Below the pieces are notes generated by a model. That model worked only from the letters and a program-made list of their open reading frames with translations, was not told the origin of the DNA and made no database searches. A stretch of DNA of 64,000 nucleotides from a virus (Duplodnaviria; Caudoviricetes), in IMG/VR virus record IMGVR_UViG_3300035208_002115; one strand, 5' to 3'. Shown in pieces: positions 1 to 45,391 of this stretch. The first letter of the stretch is position 1; each line of letters begins with the position of its first letter. The position numbers and the translations under genes are program-made.

Positions 1-1
1 A

Positions 2-148
2 CAATCATTGGTTTTTAAATCGGAATGGATTCATGAAGATTTATTACATATTTTACGAGAAGAAGAACGCCAAAGAAAAAGGAAAGAACGTCAAGAAAAA
101 TTAAAAAATATATTTGATGATGAAAACGATGGTATTTGGGACGTTTGA
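2..148 (+). CDS. 5'-truncated small ORF ending in the RxxKLxxIF tag (...RQEKLKNIFDDENDGIWDV)
   Basis: Hand translation of frame 2: open from the window edge to TGA at 146-148. Not in the ORF track. Confidence 0.7.
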   Translation, partial: QSLVFKSEWIHEDLLHILREEERQRKRKERQEKLKNIFDDENDGIWDV

Positions 149-302
149 TTTAGTGTCATCACCATCACATAGTAATAGTAGAATATATCCGAAAGATGTG
201 TTTTTGAAGCATATAGAAGAATTAAATAGGCGCATTAATAGAGAGCAACGTAAAGAAAAAATTATTCAAATATTTGGCGATGAATTATTCGAAGGATGTT
301 AA
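114..302 (+). CDS. Tagged mini-protein with prohead-protease-like motifs (FDLVSSPS, NSRIYP)
   Basis: ORF track; ends RKEKIIQIFGDE; overlaps both neighbours. Confidence 0.7.
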   Translation: MMMKTMVFGTFDLVSSPSHSNSRIYPKDVFLKHIEELNRRINREQRKEKIIQIFGDELFEGC

Positions 303-450
303 AGATGAAGATATAATTTTAAGTGGTGATTATGTAACTTATCAAGACCATAAATTTGTTGTAGACAATGTTAATTATACACCCCGTCAGAGAAAAATTT
401 TGATAAGAAAAATGAAGTTGAATAAAATTTTTGGTTATGAATTTAAATGA
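280..450 (+). CDS. Tagged mini-protein (56 aa, ends RKMKLNKIFGYEFK)
   Basis: Hand translation ATG280-TGA450; below the ORF-track cutoff. Confidence 0.65.
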   Translation: MNYSKDVKDEDIILSGDYVTYQDHKFVVDNVNYTPRQRKILIRKMKLNKIFGYEFK

Positions 451-601
451 AAGTAAAATCGAGTTGTTAATGGACTTGCAGCGATACTGTGGTTTCGAGG
501 TGAATTTTATATTAAATCAACTTGGGTTAGTTTCACCAGAAGAAAAACGCTTTGAACGTAAAGAAAAACTTAAAGAAATATTTGGAAATGATTTTCAATA
601 A
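437..601 (+). CDS. Tagged mini-protein (54 aa) with gp23-like IELLMDL segment; ends RKEKLKEIFGNDFQ
   Basis: Hand translation ATG437-TAA601. Confidence 0.7.
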   Translation: MNLNESKIELLMDLQRYCGFEVNFILNQLGLVSPEEKRFERKEKLKEIFGNDFQ

Positions 602-788
602 AAAGGAATATGTTACAAGAGAGGAATACGAAAATTTATATGAACGACTTGAACAATGTATATCATATTCTGAACATCTTGCAAAAGCAATTAATGTGTT
701 ATATAAATCATTTGAAAGTATATTACCGCCAGAAAGACTTAAAATATTAAGAAAATCAAAAATAGAAGAAATATTTGATGCCGAATAG
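588..788 (+). CDS. Tagged mini-protein carrying one scaffold-like repeat (ISYSEHLAKAI); ends RKSKIEEIFDAE
   Basis: ORF 552..788; ATG at 588 preferred over the TTG. Confidence 0.7.
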   Translation: MIFNKKEYVTREEYENLYERLEQCISYSEHLAKAINVLYKSFESILPPERLKILRKSKIEEIFDAE

Positions 789-1032
789 TGGAATAACAAT
801 ATGGGGCAATAACACACTCACTCAAATAAGTGATTTATCGGATTATGGTTGTAATATGGAAACATATTTGACTGATATATTGACTGAAGAATTATCAAAA
901 GAAATTGATAAACAAATTATTGAAACCCTGATGAACGACCCCATATGGAAAGAAGAACGAGCAAGGATAATATTACGAGAAGAAAGAAATAAAAAAATTC
1001 AAGAAATCTTTGGTGATGATTTTACTGTGTAA
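775..1032 (+). CDS. Tagged mini-protein carrying a major-capsid-like segment; ends RNKKIQEIFGDDFTV
   Basis: TQISDL...LTDILTEELSKEIDKQII aligns by eye to this phage's MCP segment TQIEDI...LESVLINELTQTISKQIV. Confidence 0.75.
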   Translation: MMPNSGITIWGNNTLTQISDLSDYGCNMETYLTDILTEELSKEIDKQIIETLMNDPIWKEERARIILREERNKKIQEIFGDDFTV

Positions 1033-1036
1033 TTTT

Positions 1037-1504
1037 TTATTTAAATTTGTTAAATAATTTCTTAATAAGTGGTAAGTCATACCATTTTTCAACACCGTTT
1101 GGTGCTTCAGCATCATAATGTTTTCCGTTATAATATATCCACACATGATTTATCTCATCATTAACTTTATTAATATTAACTGGTGGATAACCCCAGTAAT
1201 CGAGCATGTTTTTACCCCAAATCCCATATTCGGTTTCAATAATATTATCCCAATTTTCTTTAGCGAATTCGGGGTCTCTATAATTAAAAAACATATCACC
1301 ACTTAATTCGAAAAGTGTTTTTGTATAACCACCCATTTTATTGATAATTTCACCTGCGAAATCATCACACATTCCATTATTTATATCCCAATTTGTACAA
1401 CTATTTTCTTCTCGGTATTCTTTAGATGTTTGTTTTATAAGTTTGGTTATATCAGGTGAAACATTTTCATTTAAAAAATCATTGAAATTGGTTTTAATAA
1501 ACAT
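1037..1504 (-). CDS. Hypothetical protein, possibly a papain-like Cys-His-Asp fold, with a capsid-targeting-like N-terminus
   Basis: INNGMCDDFA...HVWIYYNGKHYDAE; N-terminus KTNFNDFLNE; AATATATA upstream. Confidence 0.6.
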   Translation of the reverse strand: MFIKTNFNDFLNENVSPDITKLIKQTSKEYREENSCTNWDINNGMCDDFAGEIINKMGGYTKTLFELSGDMFFNYRDPEFAKENWDNIIETEYGIWGKNMLDYWGYPPVNINKVNDEINHVWIYYNGKHYDAEAPNGVEKWYDLPLIKKLFNKFK

Positions 1505-1551
1505 ATCTCTTAAATATTTTTTATTATATATTAAAATTTTGAAATTATAAT

Positions 1552-1559
1552 TAACTTTG
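1552..1559 (+). promoter_or_regulatory. Bacteroidota-type -7 promoter element TAACTTTG
   Basis: Matches TAnnTTTG just upstream of ORF 1564. Confidence 0.5.
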
Positions 1560-1563
1560 TAAT

Positions 1564-1758
1564 ATGAATATATTAGAGCAACAATCTTTAGGTCGTGTAA
1601 TAAGAACCCAGAAAAAAATAATAATTAATAGTGTATATGGTGGTTCATCTATGAAATACCCAGTATCTATTACAATGGTGTTTCCACGCAAAAGCTATAC
1701 GAGAAAACTAAAATTAGAAAAAATATTTCCAGAGTTTAAAAATGAAAAACACAAATAG
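1564..1758 (+). CDS. Tagged mini-protein with helicase motif VI-like (QSLGRVIR) and PolB motif B-like (KIIINSVYG) segments
   Basis: ORF track; ends RKLKLEKIFPEF. Confidence 0.7.
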   Translation: MNILEQQSLGRVIRTQKKIIINSVYGGSSMKYPVSITMVFPRKSYTRKLKLEKIFPEFKNEKHK

Positions 1759-1891
1759 CAATAAAATAGTTGAATTATATTTAGAATTTAAACAAAAACA
1801 TCCAGAATATTTTAATTATTTAATGGGATTAATTAAACGGAATGAACGTAGTGATAAGTTAAAAGAAATATTTGATGATAAATTAAAATAA
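1742..1891 (+). CDS. Tagged mini-protein (49 aa, ends RSDKLKEIFDDKLK)
   Basis: Hand translation ATG1742-TAA1891. Confidence 0.65.
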   Translation: MKNTNSNKIVELYLEFKQKHPEYFNYLMGLIKRNERSDKLKEIFDDKLK

Positions 1892-1939: not shown

Positions 1940-3577
1940 TTAGATTAATACACCATTAGTGTCAGTTACGTGGATAGCCATGAATTGTTTTTCTGGGAAG
2001 AAACCAATATCAGCGATAGCATAACGGCTACGAATCATCATTCTTGGAGCCCAGGTTGCTTCAGAGATTAAGCTGATGCTTTGAGCCATCAAGTAAGGAA
2101 GGAAGATAAGACCGGGTTGGTCTACTGAGTTCTTACGTCCTAAGAAGACACGGTTGTCATTCCATGTTTGATAAGGGTCAACATAGATAGCTATTTGTCC
2201 AAGGTTACCCATTGGATAAAGCTGACCATTAGTGTTCAATTTTGACATTGCAGGTGGGTTAAGGGTGTAAGTTGATACATCCTGTAAAACAGAAGCAATA
2301 TTACCATTAGTAACAAGGTACTGAGCTGGGCCAACCCTACCATCAGTAGCGATGAAGCTAGATGCATTGTTGATTTTAGCAACAAGTTTTCTCTGAACTG
2401 AGTGAGTAGTTTCACCACCAGGAGCAACACCACCAAGATAAGCAGTAACATCGAAGTCAAACTTAGCTGTTGGTACAGTAACTCTGGTTCTTGCCAATTC
2501 AGCAAGTTCAGTAATTTTAGCAACAATCTGTTTAGAAATAGTCTGAGTTAACTCATTGATTAAAACAGATTCTAATTTCTGAACGATGTCCATACCAGTA
2601 GATGCTTTTATATCTTCAATCTGAGTACGTTTTAAAGCACTTGTGATTTCGATATCACCAACCTGTACGGTTTTGGTGCTTACATCTGGGCCAATTACAC
2701 CGGGATATGTATGTTCGTCTGTGTCACGGTTCATACCTGTGTTTAAATTCCAACCAGCAACGAAACCCGGAATGTGGTCTTCCATTAATGATACTAAGTC
2801 AACATTAGCTTCAGTCAATCCTGTTAATGCTGATAATGCATCAGCAACAACAACATCCCAACCAAATGTATTTTTAGTAGCATCGAAAATAGGTTCAACA
2901 CCACCTAATTGAGGAACTGCAACCTGACGGAATGTACGAAACATTGGAAGTCCGTCAACTTTTGAAAATCCAAGAAATTCAAGGATGCCAGTTTTTGTAG
3001 CAGGTTCAACATCATATGTAGCTGTGTTAGCAGCATAGTTGTAGAACATACGAGCAGTCATACCACCAATTCTTTCGATGATAGCACCTGCTGGACGAGC
3101 AGCCATTTGACCTCTAAGAGCAGCAGCTAAAATAGCAGTTTCAGTAGAATCATTTCCAGCAACTTTGAAAACCAAAGGTTTATCAAGTGATTCGTCATTA
3201 TTATTATCGTATTTGAAATCTACGAACAATAAATCAATTTTAGGTGAAGCAGTAGGTTTAACAGCTATTAAATCAAGACCAATAGTCTGAGCTGCGATTT
3301 TCATAGAAACAGGAAGTAAATTCTGTCCAATATCACCAGAACCATCAGTTCCACCACCCCATACCTGACCGGGTACGTTAGATGGCTGTGGACTTACAAT
3401 AGCACCCATACCATTTAAGTTACCAAGTGTTGAGTAACCAACGTTTTCATTCATCTGATGCATTTCTGCATATTCAGAAAGCCATGCTCTTTTGTCAGGG
3501 TCTTTAATACCAAGTTCTTCTAAAACTGGTAACCATTTTTTTTCAGCTTTCGCTATATCAACATTATAATTTAACAT
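1940..3577 (-). CDS. gp23: Major capsid protein, T4 gp23-like
   Basis: KKWLPVLE, AAQTIGLDLIAVKP, IYVDPY, PGLIFLPY, PRMMIRSRYA motifs; lies next to protease and portal. ATG at 3577 preferred because the track start 3646 lies upstream of the late-promoter motif. Confidence 0.93.
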   Translation of the reverse strand: MLNYNVDIAKAEKKWLPVLEELGIKDPDKRAWLSEYAEMHQMNENVGYSTLGNLNGMGAIVSPQPSNVPGQVWGGGTDGSGDIGQNLLPVSMKIAAQTIGLDLIAVKPTASPKIDLLFVDFKYDNNNDESLDKPLVFKVAGNDSTETAILAAALRGQMAARPAGAIIERIGGMTARMFYNYAANTATYDVEPATKTGILEFLGFSKVDGLPMFRTFRQVAVPQLGGVEPIFDATKNTFGWDVVVADALSALTGLTEANVDLVSLMEDHIPGFVAGWNLNTGMNRDTDEHTYPGVIGPDVSTKTVQVGDIEITSALKRTQIEDIKASTGMDIVQKLESVLINELTQTISKQIVAKITELAELARTRVTVPTAKFDFDVTAYLGGVAPGGETTHSVQRKLVAKINNASSFIATDGRVGPAQYLVTNGNIASVLQDVSTYTLNPPAMSKLNTNGQLYPMGNLGQIAIYVDPYQTWNDNRVFLGRKNSVDQPGLIFLPYLMAQSISLISEATWAPRMMIRSRYAIADIGFFPEKQFMAIHVTDTNGVLI

Positions 3578-3653
3578 AATATTTTTAATTTTTTTTTTGT
3601 CTTTTGTAGTCTTATATATTATCGCTAAAAAGCGACTTTTTTCCATATTTAGA

Positions 3654-6059
3654 CTATTTCAAGTTTTTAAACACTGAGATGTATCGGTTGACAGCATCTT
3701 CAGTCAATTTCTCGTTATCCACGAACTTTACGTTTTCGTTCATGACTTTTTTTTCATTTACACTAACTAACCTTTCTATTCCTCTACTATTCCAGAAACT
3801 TTCGAATTTTGCATCTGAGTTCAGATTGTAAAGTTTAGACTGTGCGATAATGCTATTTTGTGTTTTAGCATCCAATTGTTCCCAAACAGGTTTTAAATCG
3901 CTTGGTATTTTTTCAACTAATACTTCTGCAAAAGATTTTTTGCTTTCAGTAAGTGCATCACGAATAATTCTTAAAACATCAGCTTCAGAAGTGTATTTGC
4001 TTTCGTTCATAGCAACTTTTATTTTTTCCTTATCTTCTGATGAAAGAGCTATCCAATCAGCTTTTCTTGCTTCACTCAAAAACAATAAAAAGTGAGGCTG
4101 TTCTTCTTCTGAAGCTTTACGTTTTTTACTTTCAGAAATTAGACTTTTAATATTATTTAATAAATCCTCTTGGTCTTTAATTACTTTATCACCAATGAAT
4201 TTTACTCTTGATTCTTGTACTTCTTGTACTTCTTCAACGTCATCCATTTTTACAACTACGATACCGTTTTGGACATTTGTGGCAATAACTTCACCAGTTT
4301 TGTCGTCATCGACTTTAACTATCATACCCGGTAATATCATACCTGCTACGTTTTCACCATCTTGAACCTGTGTTTGTGCTTGTGGGTCTTGAACCTGTGT
4401 TTGTGCTTGTGGTTCTTGAACCTGTGGTTCTTCCTGAGTCTGTACATCAGTTTCAGTGTCAGTTGTAATGTTAAGTTGTCCAGCATCACCAGTAGCATCA
4501 GCAGCAGCATCACCAGCAACCAAAGGCTGTTCTGTAATACCATCTTCTACTTGTACGGGTTCTTCGCTTGTTTCATCTTCATAATAAGAATCAACGTTGT
4601 CAACTTTCATATTACCCATTCTCTGTTCAGGTGAATCAACATTTTCGTTTATTTTTCCACCTTTAATTTGTTCAGAAATATATTTTTGATATTCAATATT
4701 TTTATCTAAAGATTCAGCAATATAATTTGTGTATGCCTGAGTATCAGTTAAATTTTCAGCAATATATTCAGCATATGCAATTGAATTATCAAGATGTTCA
4801 GCTACGTATTCGCTATAACGAATAGAGTTATCAACGTTTTCAGCAAGATATTCTGAGTATGCGATTGAGTTATCAACGTTTTCAGCAAGATATTCTGAGT
4901 ATGCGATTGAGTTATCAACGTTTTCAGCAAGATATTCTGAATATTCAATATTTTTATCAAGATTTTCAGCAAGATATTCTGAATATACAATAGCATTGTC
5001 AAGGTTTTCACCTAAATAATCAGCAAATTGAATGGTTTTATCAACATGTTCAGCAATATATTCTGAGAAATCAATACTATTACTCAATGTTTCAGCTATA
5101 TACTGGCTATAATTAATACTATCATCTAACTTTTCAGCTAAGTATTTAGAATAATCAATAGATTTGTTAAGATTTTCAGCTAAATAATCATTATGTTTAA
5201 CAAGATTATCAGTTGTAGTTTTTAACGTTTTGTTTTCGTTTACAAGAATTTGAATATTTTCAGCTAAATAATCTAAATAACTTGCCACTTTTGTGAAAGA
5301 TGAATTTAGATTAGCATAATACTCAGATAATTCTTCAACTTTTTCGGGAGATTCCTTACCTTCTTTGATGGTTTTTTCAAGTTCTTCTTTTATTTTACTC
5401 ATTTCCCCAGTTAAATAGGTAGAGTATTCTTCCATCTGTGTTTTTGTTACAGCATCATTATTGTTCATAGTAAATAATTCATTTATTTTTGTTTCATCGT
5501 CAACGGGAAAAATTCTAAAATTTGCATTTTCATTTGTATACCCTAACGATTCATTTAAAGACATTTTTGCAGAAGCAAATCCCGGGTCAGCAACGGCATC
5601 ATAAGTAAAAAGTTTTTTAATTGTAACTTCACCATTAGATTCGGTCACACCTGCTGCACGAGATGATACAAAAAGAGGGCATTCATCCTCGACTAAAGCT
5701 CTGGCTTCTTTACCCCATTGTGTGGTCAATAATCTTATTGAACCTTCTATAATATTTTTTTCTTGATTAAATGTAGCACTCTCAACTGTGTGTGAGACTC
5801 TGCGTAAAGACGTATCGAAAACATCAGGATGGTCGAATTCACCATATATAACTCCTAATTGTTTTTTTCTTGCCAATAATTCATTAAGATGTGGTAGAAA
5901 TTTGTCTGCGGTATAGATTCTTTCATTACGATTTTTTATATTAAATTCAGTAAATGTTCCAGATAATATAAATTTTTTAGTTGAAAGCGAAGCTTGTTCG
6001 TTAATCATTAATCCACTATTACAATGTTCCACAATCAAAATAGGTTTGAGTTTTTCCAT
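3654..6059 (-). CDS. gp21: Prohead core protease (gp21-like) fused to a repeat-rich scaffold domain
   Basis: NRNERIY, GEFDHP, VSH, VSSRAAG, YDAVADPG motifs, followed by 14-aa helical repeats and an acidic/Q-rich linker. Confidence 0.9.
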   Translation of the reverse strand: MEKLKPILIVEHCNSGLMINEQASLSTKKFILSGTFTEFNIKNRNERIYTADKFLPHLNELLARKKQLGVIYGEFDHPDVFDTSLRRVSHTVESATFNQEKNIIEGSIRLLTTQWGKEARALVEDECPLFVSSRAAGVTESNGEVTIKKLFTYDAVADPGFASAKMSLNESLGYTNENANFRIFPVDDETKINELFTMNNNDAVTKTQMEEYSTYLTGEMSKIKEELEKTIKEGKESPEKVEELSEYYANLNSSFTKVASYLDYLAENIQILVNENKTLKTTTDNLVKHNDYLAENLNKSIDYSKYLAEKLDDSINYSQYIAETLSNSIDFSEYIAEHVDKTIQFADYLGENLDNAIVYSEYLAENLDKNIEYSEYLAENVDNSIAYSEYLAENVDNSIAYSEYLAENVDNSIRYSEYVAEHLDNSIAYAEYIAENLTDTQAYTNYIAESLDKNIEYQKYISEQIKGGKINENVDSPEQRMGNMKVDNVDSYYEDETSEEPVQVEDGITEQPLVAGDAAADATGDAGQLNITTDTETDVQTQEEPQVQEPQAQTQVQDPQAQTQVQDGENVAGMILPGMIVKVDDDKTGEVIATNVQNGIVVVKMDDVEEVQEVQESRVKFIGDKVIKDQEDLLNNIKSLISESKKRKASEEEQPHFLLFLSEARKADWIALSSEDKEKIKVAMNESKYTSEADVLRIIRDALTESKKSFAEVLVEKIPSDLKPVWEQLDAKTQNSIIAQSKLYNLNSDAKFESFWNSRGIERLVSVNEKKVMNENVKFVDNEKLTEDAVNRYISVFKNLK
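4690..5200 (-). repeat. Coding tandem repeat, 42-bp/14-aa unit (IAYSEYLAENVDNS), about 12 copies of which about 3 are near-identical
   Basis: gagttatcaacgttttcagcaagatattctga recurs with a 42-nt period at about 4824-4940. Confidence 0.9.
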
Positions 6060-8462: not shown

Positions 8463-8798
8463 TTATTGACTATTTTTTAAAGAATTAATTGGAAACCAAT
8501 ATTCTTTTTTAAAAGGTATTTTTATATTACCGTTTATTATCAATTCTTTAGAAGTATTTTTAATATCATTCACATTGATTACTTCATATGTAAATGGTAA
8601 ATTTGCATCACCATTTATTTTAACTTCACCAAGACTATCATCCCATTGAACATCTTCATGATATTTTCTCATCAACTCATGAACTTGTTCTTTAGCTTCT
8701 TCTCTGGTTATACCATCAACTGGTATAATGAATTTTTTATGATTAAATTCAGTATGTTTTTTTTTAAATCTTTTATCAATAAAACTAAATAATCCCAT
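8463..8798 (-). CDS. Stand-alone partial portal duplicate
   Basis: KKFIIPVDGITREEA...YHEDVQWDDSLGEVKINGDANLP...EYWFP versus portal KKFIIPTDGLTRAQA...YHEDVQWDDRLGTVKINGSANIP...DFWFP. Confidence 0.85.
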   Translation of the reverse strand: MGLFSFIDKRFKKKHTEFNHKKFIIPVDGITREEAKEQVHELMRKYHEDVQWDDSLGEVKINGDANLPFTYEVINVNDIKNTSKELIINGNIKIPFKKEYWFPINSLKNSQ

Positions 8799-35704: not shown

Positions 35705-36055
35705 TTAATGCATTAAGGGGACTTCTCTTAAAGTGTTAGTTAATTTAATAACCTCATCTTCCTTCTCCTTTGTAGGTATAAAAATAAATTTACAGTTTTC
35801 ACACTCATCATCATATTTATAAATTGTCATAACATCATATATATGATTCTTGGCTTCTTCTGCTACCATGTTTCCCACATTAATAATAACACAATATAAA
35901 TTATCTGTTGTGTCTAATTTATTTAATATGTGAATTTCTTTATCATCAGAAAAATCAAAAACACAATTCATATCAGAATAAAGAGAATTTAGATGCTCTA
36001 AAACAGATATTCTTCTTTTTTTATCTGGGACTAATATTTTTATTTTCTGTTCCAT
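35705..36055 (-). CDS. Hypothetical protein containing a T4-portal-like segment (IINVGNM..EEA....DVM..YK)
   Basis: Resembles the recalled gp20 motif FYIDVGNMPxxKAEQYLxDVMxRYKN. Confidence 0.55.
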   Translation of the reverse strand: MEQKIKILVPDKKRRISVLEHLNSLYSDMNCVFDFSDDKEIHILNKLDTTDNLYCVIINVGNMVAEEAKNHIYDVMTIYKYDDECENCKFIFIPTKEKEDEVIKLTNTLREVPLMH

Positions 36056-44404: not shown

Positions 44405-45391
44405 TTATTCATCACAAATATCTTTTAATTTTTCTTTTCGTAAATTTAAAAATAAATTATGAATAACTTTTTTTTCCTGAGTAGTTAAATATTCATTTTG
44501 TCTATTTGGGGATTCGTAATTACCAGTAGAAGTAAAATATAAAAGATTATATATGGAACAAATTGCTCCTTTATAACCTTTTATTAAAAATTTATACTGC
44601 ATCAAACCACCCATCTTCACTCTCTGATATTCATATGGCATAGTTATTTTAATTTTCTTATTTCTTATTTTATTTGTTGTGGTATATTGTTTTAAAACTT
44701 TAATTATGTGGCTGACAAAATCCCCCATATCCATATGAAATGCACTATTACAACAATCTCGACAATATTCAGCAATGAATTTCTCGGTTTTATTATTAAA
44801 TTTACGATTTATTTTAGCCGTATAATAATGCATACCCTTAAAGTATTTATCATCTAAATTCATTCCCAAAAATTTCATTAAGTTTTTTAAATCGTTGAGT
44901 TGAAATGCTGTGAAGTGTTCGTTGTTTTATTAAATTGTAAAACTCATTAACTTTATCATCACCAACAATTTCTAATTCATAAATTGGTATCTCAGTATGA
45001 ACACTGATAATATAATATCTTTCAAATTTCTCTTGTAATGTCATCACTTAAAATGTCTTTAAGTTTTTCCTTTCGTTCTCTTATTTTTTTCTTTTTAGAA
45101 TATTCTTTAGAGATTTCAAGGAATCTATTAATATCATCTACTTCAGTATCAATATAGTTATTCAGATGTTTCGAATTCATCACCAAATATTTCTTTAAGT
45201 TTGTCTTTTCGATGTCCAACTTTTATTTTTCGTTTTGTTTCCTCACTAAATGGTTTCATGGACATTGGATATAACGATTCGAAATCCATTTTCATGATAA
45301 TCGATTTATATACTTTATCTGGCGGTGGTAAAAGTCTTATTTGACCACCTTTATAATTTTTTGGGTCGAAAAATGCTTTCTTCTTTTTCAT
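44405..45391 (-). CDS. Array of four overlapping tagged ORFs (45158, 45022, 44850, 44405); 45158 carries PolB motif A-like DFESLYP
   Basis: End RKDKLKEIFGDEF, RKEKLKDILSDD, RFKKLNEIFGNEF, RKEKLKDICDE. Confidence 0.75.

Follow-up and report, generated by a model that had tools for sequence, protein, structure and literature searches.

Viral proteins that join part of an essential gene product to a common interaction module have been described in the Bodo saltans virus, whose ankyrin open reading frames (ORFs) carry 5' fragments of essential viral genes and have been hypothesized to act as decoys through capture or degradation (Deeg et al. 2018, PMC5871332). Here we describe a similar design in a bacteriophage (Duplodnaviria; Caudoviricetes). 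The window, a stretch of 64,000 nucleotides (nt) from the record IMGVR_UViG_3300035208_002115, corresponds to positions 541370-605369 of a 675,678-bp phage record with 27% G+C. It opens within an array of small ORFs in which short motifs of core phage proteins are joined to a shared C-terminal tail, hereafter the tag. This design of core-protein motif plus shared tail is real. The fragment-plus-handle arrangement of the Bodo saltans virus is the nearest published one; the anatomy reported here is real and selected, and its function is putative. Bodo saltans virus is a eukaryotic giant virus with ankyrin repeats on large proteins, whereas the present genes belong to a bacteriophage and encode proteins of 46-95 amino acids (aa) with a nine-residue helix as the handle, and no ankyrin match was found in the array ORFs. 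Spliced motifs, pieces resembling the proteins of other phages and demonstrable selection further distinguish the phage array.

Other known systems share single features with it. Eukaryotic microProteins illustrate that a small protein piece may titrate the partners of its parent, and short terminal peptides common to unrelated phage proteins are familiar from the gp45 clamp-binding C-terminal peptides and the capsid-targeting sequence (CTS) of T4. Dominant-negative fragments could likewise titrate a parent's partners (PMC9245647), but these and the microProteins are engineered or whole interaction domains, with neither a shared tag nor patchworks. Host recognition of short capsid or tail stretches is known from the Gol/Lit/EF-Tu system (PMC3014915), from CmdC, which binds Gp23 (PMC11618068), and from HigC (bioRxiv 10.1101/2024.02.24.581848); unlike the array products, these triggers lie within the full protein, their free peptides activate or compete towards activation, and no stand-alone phage genes have been described for them. 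The sources of the pieces also overlap the targets of Avs/STAND receptors, namely capsid, portal, polymerase and helicase (bioRxiv 10.64898/2026.01.04.697583), although those receptors recognize folded cores, such as the capsid A-domain, and the small proteins contain short motifs from other parts. In the literature covered, which mostly excluded subscription papers, we found no description of tagged motif proteins of this kind in phages.

Core-protein pieces in the array

The array consists of nine small ORFs bounded by a split DNA-polymerase gene and the capsid gene, all nine ending in R-x-x-K-[IL]-x-x-[IL]-F. Eight of them fall wholly or partly within the window, as the first-pass annotation had reported, with the corrections that the first starts 100 nt before the window and that a ninth tagged ORF lies upstream, at -371 to -93, directly 3' of the N-terminal half of the split polymerase gene. 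Seven ORFs are chained by overlap, their start codons lying in or just past the DNA of the preceding tag; they are followed by an opposite-strand gene for 155 aa, by two overlapping tagged ORFs (G and H) and by a hairpin. Probable ATG starts are at 117 (ORF B), 280 (ORF C) and 778 (ORF F). The ORFs reaching into the window are:

ORF A, start at -100, 3' part at 1-148, plus strand, 82 aa: gp23 piece of canonical T4 type (strand-helix) and tag
ORF B, 117-302, plus strand, 61 aa: two non-adjacent prohead-protease motifs joined in swapped order (D-x-V-x-x-P-S, then N-x-R-I-Y-P) and tag
ORF C, 280-450, plus strand, 56 aa: conserved body and tag
ORF D, 437-601, plus strand, 54 aa: possible degenerate gp23 piece and tag
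ORF E, 588-788, plus strand, 66 aa: scaffold-repeat piece of the phage's own type and tag
ORF F, 778-1032, plus strand, 84 aa: gp23/gp24 long helix (residues ~24-52) and tag helix; belongs to a wide family of small proteins of 46-118 aa
ORF G, 1564-1758, plus strand, 64 aa: putative superfamily 2 helicase motif VI fused to motif B of family B DNA polymerase (PolB), and tag
ORF H, 1742-1891, plus strand, 49 aa: unrecognised body and tag

Sequence comparison gives firm assignments for ORFs A, B, E and F, which surpass shuffled controls or library thresholds, a comparison that the first-pass annotation had called for. ORF A, which that annotation had counted among the motif-free ORFs, contains a gp23 piece by its matches to Pfam Gp23 (E 0.0036) and PHROG138 (E 0.0097), and has orthologues in three relatives. 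ORF B, with two spliced prohead-protease motifs, scores z 11.5 against the PTm1 protease and 5.7 against the phage's own (local hidden Markov model (HMM), 7e-8), and its protease-motif residues are invariant across four orthologues. ORF E matches the scaffold with z 3.3 and a scaffold HMM at 6.5e-5, the orthologue in a complete relative (G001, capsid 94% identical) reaching 3e-7. ORF F matches Pfam Gp23 at E 2e-5 to 4e-5 (genome-wide E 8e-5), its family profile matches T4 gp24 at E 1e-3, and the piece maps onto residues 184-223 of T4 gp24 and 217-244 of mature gp23; a structure model predicts two helices.

The remaining pieces proposed at first pass fared differently. ORF G had no library match; its invariant non-tag residues in four orthologues are Q-x-x-G-R-x-x-R (helicase motif VI), N-S-x-Y-G (PolB motif B) and one glutamate, and one orthologue matches a PHROG DNA polymerase (E 0.049), so that conservation supports a helicase VI and PolB motif B origin. 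The gp23 origin of ORF D is unproven, because neither ORF D nor its three orthologues matched any family and the motif residues are not invariant. Source matching yielded nothing above shuffles for ORF C, whose orthologues are 60-69% identical, and no recognised source for ORF H; PDB profile searches with ORFs A, B and G gave nothing meaningful. The gp23/gp24-like proteins are not full-length homologues, as they span 30-45 of 376 Pfam positions and a complete HK97 fold exceeds 300 aa.

Recognisable pieces are concentrated in the array. When tags were removed from 165 tagged proteins of the phage, nine bodies matched profiles built from relatives (E <=0.01), compared with one or two after shuffling; four of the nine array ORFs have recognised pieces, against five of 156 tagged bodies elsewhere (p 5e-4).

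The ORF F piece is widespread. Its profile, run against 1.84 billion proteins, found 26 further clusters, 25 of them proteins of 46-178 aa, and no full-length capsid above threshold; a word-index search for longer proteins with the piece also found none, which is weak evidence. Most relatives end in a variant of the tag, the smallest (46 aa) being helix and tag alone, and linker length is free. One candidate, P0020, was discarded as a chance fn3-repeat match. Another relative, P0025 (L140:166-702, 178 aa), continues into apparent C-terminal gp23 strands and resembles a minimal capsid P-domain. ESM Atlas viral clusters of 56-71 aa carry Gp23 matches, which we regard as a lead only.

It had also been claimed that several fragments fit canonical T4-type motifs better than the phage's own copies do. 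This holds for ORF F, with a Pfam Gp23 score of 23.6 bits against 17.0 for the own segment, and for ORF A (17.7 bits, the own segment having no match), and it does not hold for the own-type pieces at 588, 8463, genome 223918 and genome 415016. The library thus combines self-like and foreign-like motifs. Of 30 members of the ORF F family, 24 match Campylobacter phage gp23 better than they match the own capsid, the corresponding capsid segment of the phage's own clade is nearly invariant over ~40 loci and differs from the small proteins, and no gp24-like source was found in the genome; the ORF F consensus blends own and canonical letters. The same design occurs in LR745206, a published huge phage whose capsid is 51% identical to the own one. 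Unannotated tagged small proteins with a protease motif and a gp23 motif lie there at L142:9488-9649 and L142:42206-42391.

Purifying selection on the pieces

Comparison with related genomes, also suggested at first pass, showed the array ORFs to be intact in six relatives or more. L119-L121, L124 and SRR20217207 have an intact array whose order is mostly preserved; in L122-L123 its genes are shuffled, G001 has a shorter version, and little of it is left in G002. Between relatives, 33-52% of four-fold sites have changed, so that synonymous sites are near saturation. At the protein level the pieces are 52-61% identical, the tags 68-80% and the remaining parts 37-52%. For the pieces, every pairwise comparison rejects a dN/dS ratio (omega) of 1 (likelihood-ratio test 79-188); because the maximum-likelihood dS values, 4-36, are saturated, omega is read only as far below 1. 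Of the 73 columns that match core proteins, 44 do not vary among orthologues, compared with 12 of the 56 other columns (p 8e-6); the result is significant for polar residues alone (p 0.001) and is unchanged without ORF F. The reference core proteins were picked after the matches had been seen, but orthologue invariance is independent of that choice.

The pieces are therefore under purifying selection, and their motif residues are preferentially kept. This shows that they are not debris: pseudogenes would have broken frames and dN/dS near 1.

Endonuclease-like ORFs, identified by eye, are inserted among the capsid, array and PolB genes of relatives (L001:12912-17617, L002:5410-10723 and L003:11773-17220). 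Some accessory genes, at 35705-36055 in the window and at genome 637706, are 92-99% identical to G002, whereas long untagged genes are synonymously saturated; accessory blocks may have been recently exchanged with G002.

The shared tail and its genomic setting

The tag, in the form R-x-x-K-[IL]-x-x-[IL]-[FL] within 15 residues of the C-terminus, is present in 159 of 1054 called genes (~15%; shuffle mean 3.8, maximum 9). It is thus shared by all array ORFs, as first noticed, without being specific to the array. Since its codon use and variation resemble the genome average, we regard it as a protein motif: a basic amphipathic helix, mostly on small fast-evolving proteins, and selected as protein. 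In G001, which has ~100 tagged genes, the tag is kept in 84 of 94 orthologue pairs; tagged genes have a median identity of 60% to that relative, against 78% for the rest, and omega is 0.025 for the tag and 0.05 for the carrier body. The tag also occurs in LR745206, and was not found in the sampled parts of LR756501, Lak-A1 and PTm1.

Tagged genes often overlap the next gene (64/148 vs 126/754), the tag DNA frequently providing the downstream ATG. The late motif TAATATA, which marks genes with T4 CTS-like leaders, is rare in tagged operons (9/85 vs 26/42, p 3e-9), where TAnnTTTG is enriched (26/85 vs 2/42); both features suggest that the tagged proteins are early or middle, non-virion products. 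A search for public RNA runs listed none. Within tag DNA itself TAnnTTTG shows no excess (12 vs 11.3), and the tag as a DNA repeat or hidden promoter was rejected on this ground and on that of its genome-like codons.

The tag differs from T4 CTS leaders in being C-terminal and in operons that lack the late motif, and the two sets share three genes where 9.7 are expected. The CTS-like leaders themselves, N-terminal and under a late TTAATATA motif, are carried by ~64 genes genome-wide, including the one at 1037-1504 of the window, almost never together with the tag. In its hydrophobic i, i+3, i+4 C-terminal spacing the tag profile resembles clamp-binding peptides of the gp45/PIP type. Unlike these, it was absent from the replication enzymes checked (PolB, clamp loader, UvsW and gp46), and the C-terminal half of the own PolB terminates in a gp45-type clamp-binding motif without R/K. 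An unannotated 283-aa protein adjoining the terminase gene (L131:2454-3305, genome 30953-31804) is a probable sliding clamp, with a PCNA/gp45 fold predicted by Atlas; a predicted complex of this protein with the ORF F tag helix scored 0.00. A stand-alone BRCT partner was also discarded, the sole BRCT match lying within a 647-aa frame that is probably a ligase. Searches for phage-encoded ClpP and GroEL found none, and none of 81 tagged bodies matched PADLOC defence profiles. The tag, on ~15% of the proteome of some of the largest phages known, is presumably an undescribed sorting or docking signal.

The surroundings of the array comprise:

1037-1504, minus strand: untagged 155-aa gene with a T4 CTS-like N-terminal leader, separating the two runs and outside the tagged set
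1552-1559, plus strand: TAnnTTTG (Bacteroidota -7-type) element just 5' of ORF G, a candidate host-type promoter not clearly retained upstream of orthologues
1890-1921, either strand: hairpin resembling a two-way intrinsic terminator, separating the array from the capsid gene
1940-3646, minus strand: gp23-like major capsid protein, the own copy for segment comparisons
3654-6059, minus strand: prohead protease-scaffold fusion, the source type for ORFs B and E

The TAnnTTTG elements point to a Bacteroidota host; a sigma-70 promoter scan yielded as much as shuffles did. The own capsid shares 62% identity with its counterpart in the 735-kb huge phage LR756501 and ~29% with those of Lak phages. PolB is split into two genes 118 kb apart, at genome 539510-540991, just before the window, and in L134 (genome 659109-660566). 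A possible vWA-MoxR-type cluster (567-aa protein, vWA-like ORF and AAA ATPase) was noticed by eye and by an AAA match at genome 184817-189010.

Further pieces and tagged domains lie outside the array:

45158-45391, minus strand: PolB motif-A piece and tag (PF00136, E 3e-5 genome-wide)
8463-8798, minus strand: untagged partial copy of the portal, immediately 5' of the own portal gene and sharing 33/49 aa and 80% of nt with it
35705-36055, minus strand: untagged ORF with a weak portal-like motif (z 2.7 against the S-CAM3 portal), not established
genome 234509-235099: terminase ATPase and tag
genome 637706-638140: prohead protease and tag
genome 291175-291426: probable sheath-like start motif and tag

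The ORF at 45158, for which no orthologue was found in G001, had been read as PolB plus single-stranded DNA-binding protein; the PolB part stands, and the second motif was dropped since the PolB model spans the entire stretch. The portal fragment proposed at 8463 is likewise real and retained in G001, while the one at 35705 is weak. A second array of tagged small proteins (L054:4219-5384, genome 223218-224383) is kept in G001; two of its members (genome 223568 and genome 223918) reproduce the capsid segment equivalent to Gol, which no ORF of the window array does. A copy of the scaffold, degenerate domains of the protease and the terminase, and the probable sheath start motif also bear the tag and are kept in G001. 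Nucleotide identity of the pieces to the own genes is only 67-83%. An untagged degenerate mini-capsid is located at genome 368050-368646.

Possible roles of the tagged motif proteins

We give a probability of about 35 per cent to the reading in which the array encodes early bait-plus-handle adaptors directed against host sensors of short phage motifs. Some 15% of the phage proteins end in one basic amphipathic helix, and in a subset concentrated in the array the body is a 20-50-residue piece or patchwork of signature motifs, apparently from capsid, prohead protease, scaffold, polymerase and helicase and, elsewhere, from terminase and probably sheath. The motif would lure host factors that recognize core proteins by short or unfolded stretches, for example chaperone-type or EF-Tu/Lit-type sensors, and the tail would dock on one common partner (a protease, chaperone or compartment), thereby removing the captured factor and preventing the bait from triggering defence. 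Canonical-type and multi-motif baits would be broad, high-affinity competitors, own-type baits would cover the phage's own proteins, and all would be produced before the genuine late proteins appear. This reading would account for the spliced motifs and for the presence of two motif types, and the sources of the pieces overlap known classes of defence trigger.

Several observations weigh against such adaptors. The target, the tag partner and the expression of the small proteins are all putative. More than 90% of tagged proteins have no recognisable piece, three of the eight window ORFs (280, 437 and 1742) have no proven one, and profile searches detect conserved motifs only, which makes the bias towards signature motifs partly one of ascertainment. 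The margin by which the pieces exceed the remainder of each protein in conservation is, moreover, modest (52-61% vs 37-52%). The decoy library suggested at first pass is partly supported: its motif-plus-tail design is real and selected, but most of the ~160 tagged proteins are unrelated and only ~10 contain a recognisable piece. Titration of Avs, suggested at the same time, is unlikely, since the pieces are short motifs of 20-50 aa that would not form the surface bound; the ORF F-type helix presumably lies outside the capsid A-domain, judging from the HK97 fold. Avs bind folded domains over wide surfaces, the A-domain being the capsid contact (bioRxiv 10.64898/2026.01.04.697583). Free trigger peptides can, in addition, activate defence: the Gol peptide of T4 gp23 activates Lit via EF-Tu (PMC3014915), and an unfolded 31-residue gpV peptide competes with the antitoxin for binding to HigC (bioRxiv 10.1101/2024.02.24.581848). 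Titration on its own is consequently unlikely, and an extra step of sequestration or degradation via the tag would be needed.

A serious though doubtful alternative is that illegitimate recombination brought core-gene pieces into tag cassettes, where they were kept as stable helix or strand carriers of the tag, or for a new function unrelated to their source, the resemblance being history. The tag is indeed more conserved than the pieces, which are little more conserved than the remainder; most tagged bodies are unrelated, degenerate whole domains (terminase, protease) are tagged too, and the frequent supply of the next ATG by tag DNA would make capture easy. Passive carriers would not, however, be expected to retain precisely the motif residues, polar catalytic-type ones included, nor would the same segments recur across many lineages or motifs from different genes be spliced together.

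It is rather unlikely that the products are poison peptides against co-infecting T4-like phages, swapping into or capping a rival's folding capsid, protease or polymerase, with the tag routing the complex to degradation. The canonical fit of ORFs A and F, the proximity of the ORF F family to Campylobacter phage gp23, the nearly invariant and different own-clade segment and the missing gp24-like source in the genome would agree with a foreign target, and engineered fragments do inhibit their parent proteins (PMC9245647). Own-type pieces, however, would be harmful to the phage that makes them, fused catalytic motifs would probably be poor folding partners, and the ORF F consensus mixes own and canonical letters.

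Self-regulation is improbable. According to this explanation the pieces would act as buffers or timers of head assembly and replication in the phage itself, for instance by keeping chaperones, EF-Tu, scaffold or protease engaged until the late genes are expressed. The array does lie between PolB and the capsid-protease-portal block, own-type pieces exist, and the Gol region binds EF-Tu (PMC3014915); canonical-type pieces nevertheless differ from the own proteins, and gene content and order vary among close relatives, with few members in G002, which fits conflict genes and not assembly factors. Finally, conserved motifs are typical homing sites and endonuclease-like ORFs crowd the locus in relatives, but decoys acting as DNA or RNA (homing-endonuclease or CRISPR targets, promoter-like repeats), with the peptides incidental, are very improbable given synonymous sites near saturation, the low nucleotide identity to own genes, and tag DNA with genome-like codons and no TAnnTTTG excess.

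The bait-plus-handle reading can be extended to a modular anti-immunity platform of megaphages, in which one docking tail would serve a single partner, a degradation or sequestration hub, with ~160 interchangeable baits, some being synthetic-looking strings of the most conserved T4-superfamily core motifs; this extension is unlikely, if less so than poison peptides. If it were true, the baits would chart which epitopes are recognized by bacterial sensors of linear phage peptides, a class as yet undescribed. The small proteins are ready-made reagents for asking how phages with essential, slowly changing capsids and polymerases evade sensors of those proteins, being small, with natural variants of motif and tag and with residues marked by selection. 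Should they be poisons, phages would have a new way of excluding one another; should they be baits, both the host sensors and the epitopes that these recognize could be found by pull-down.

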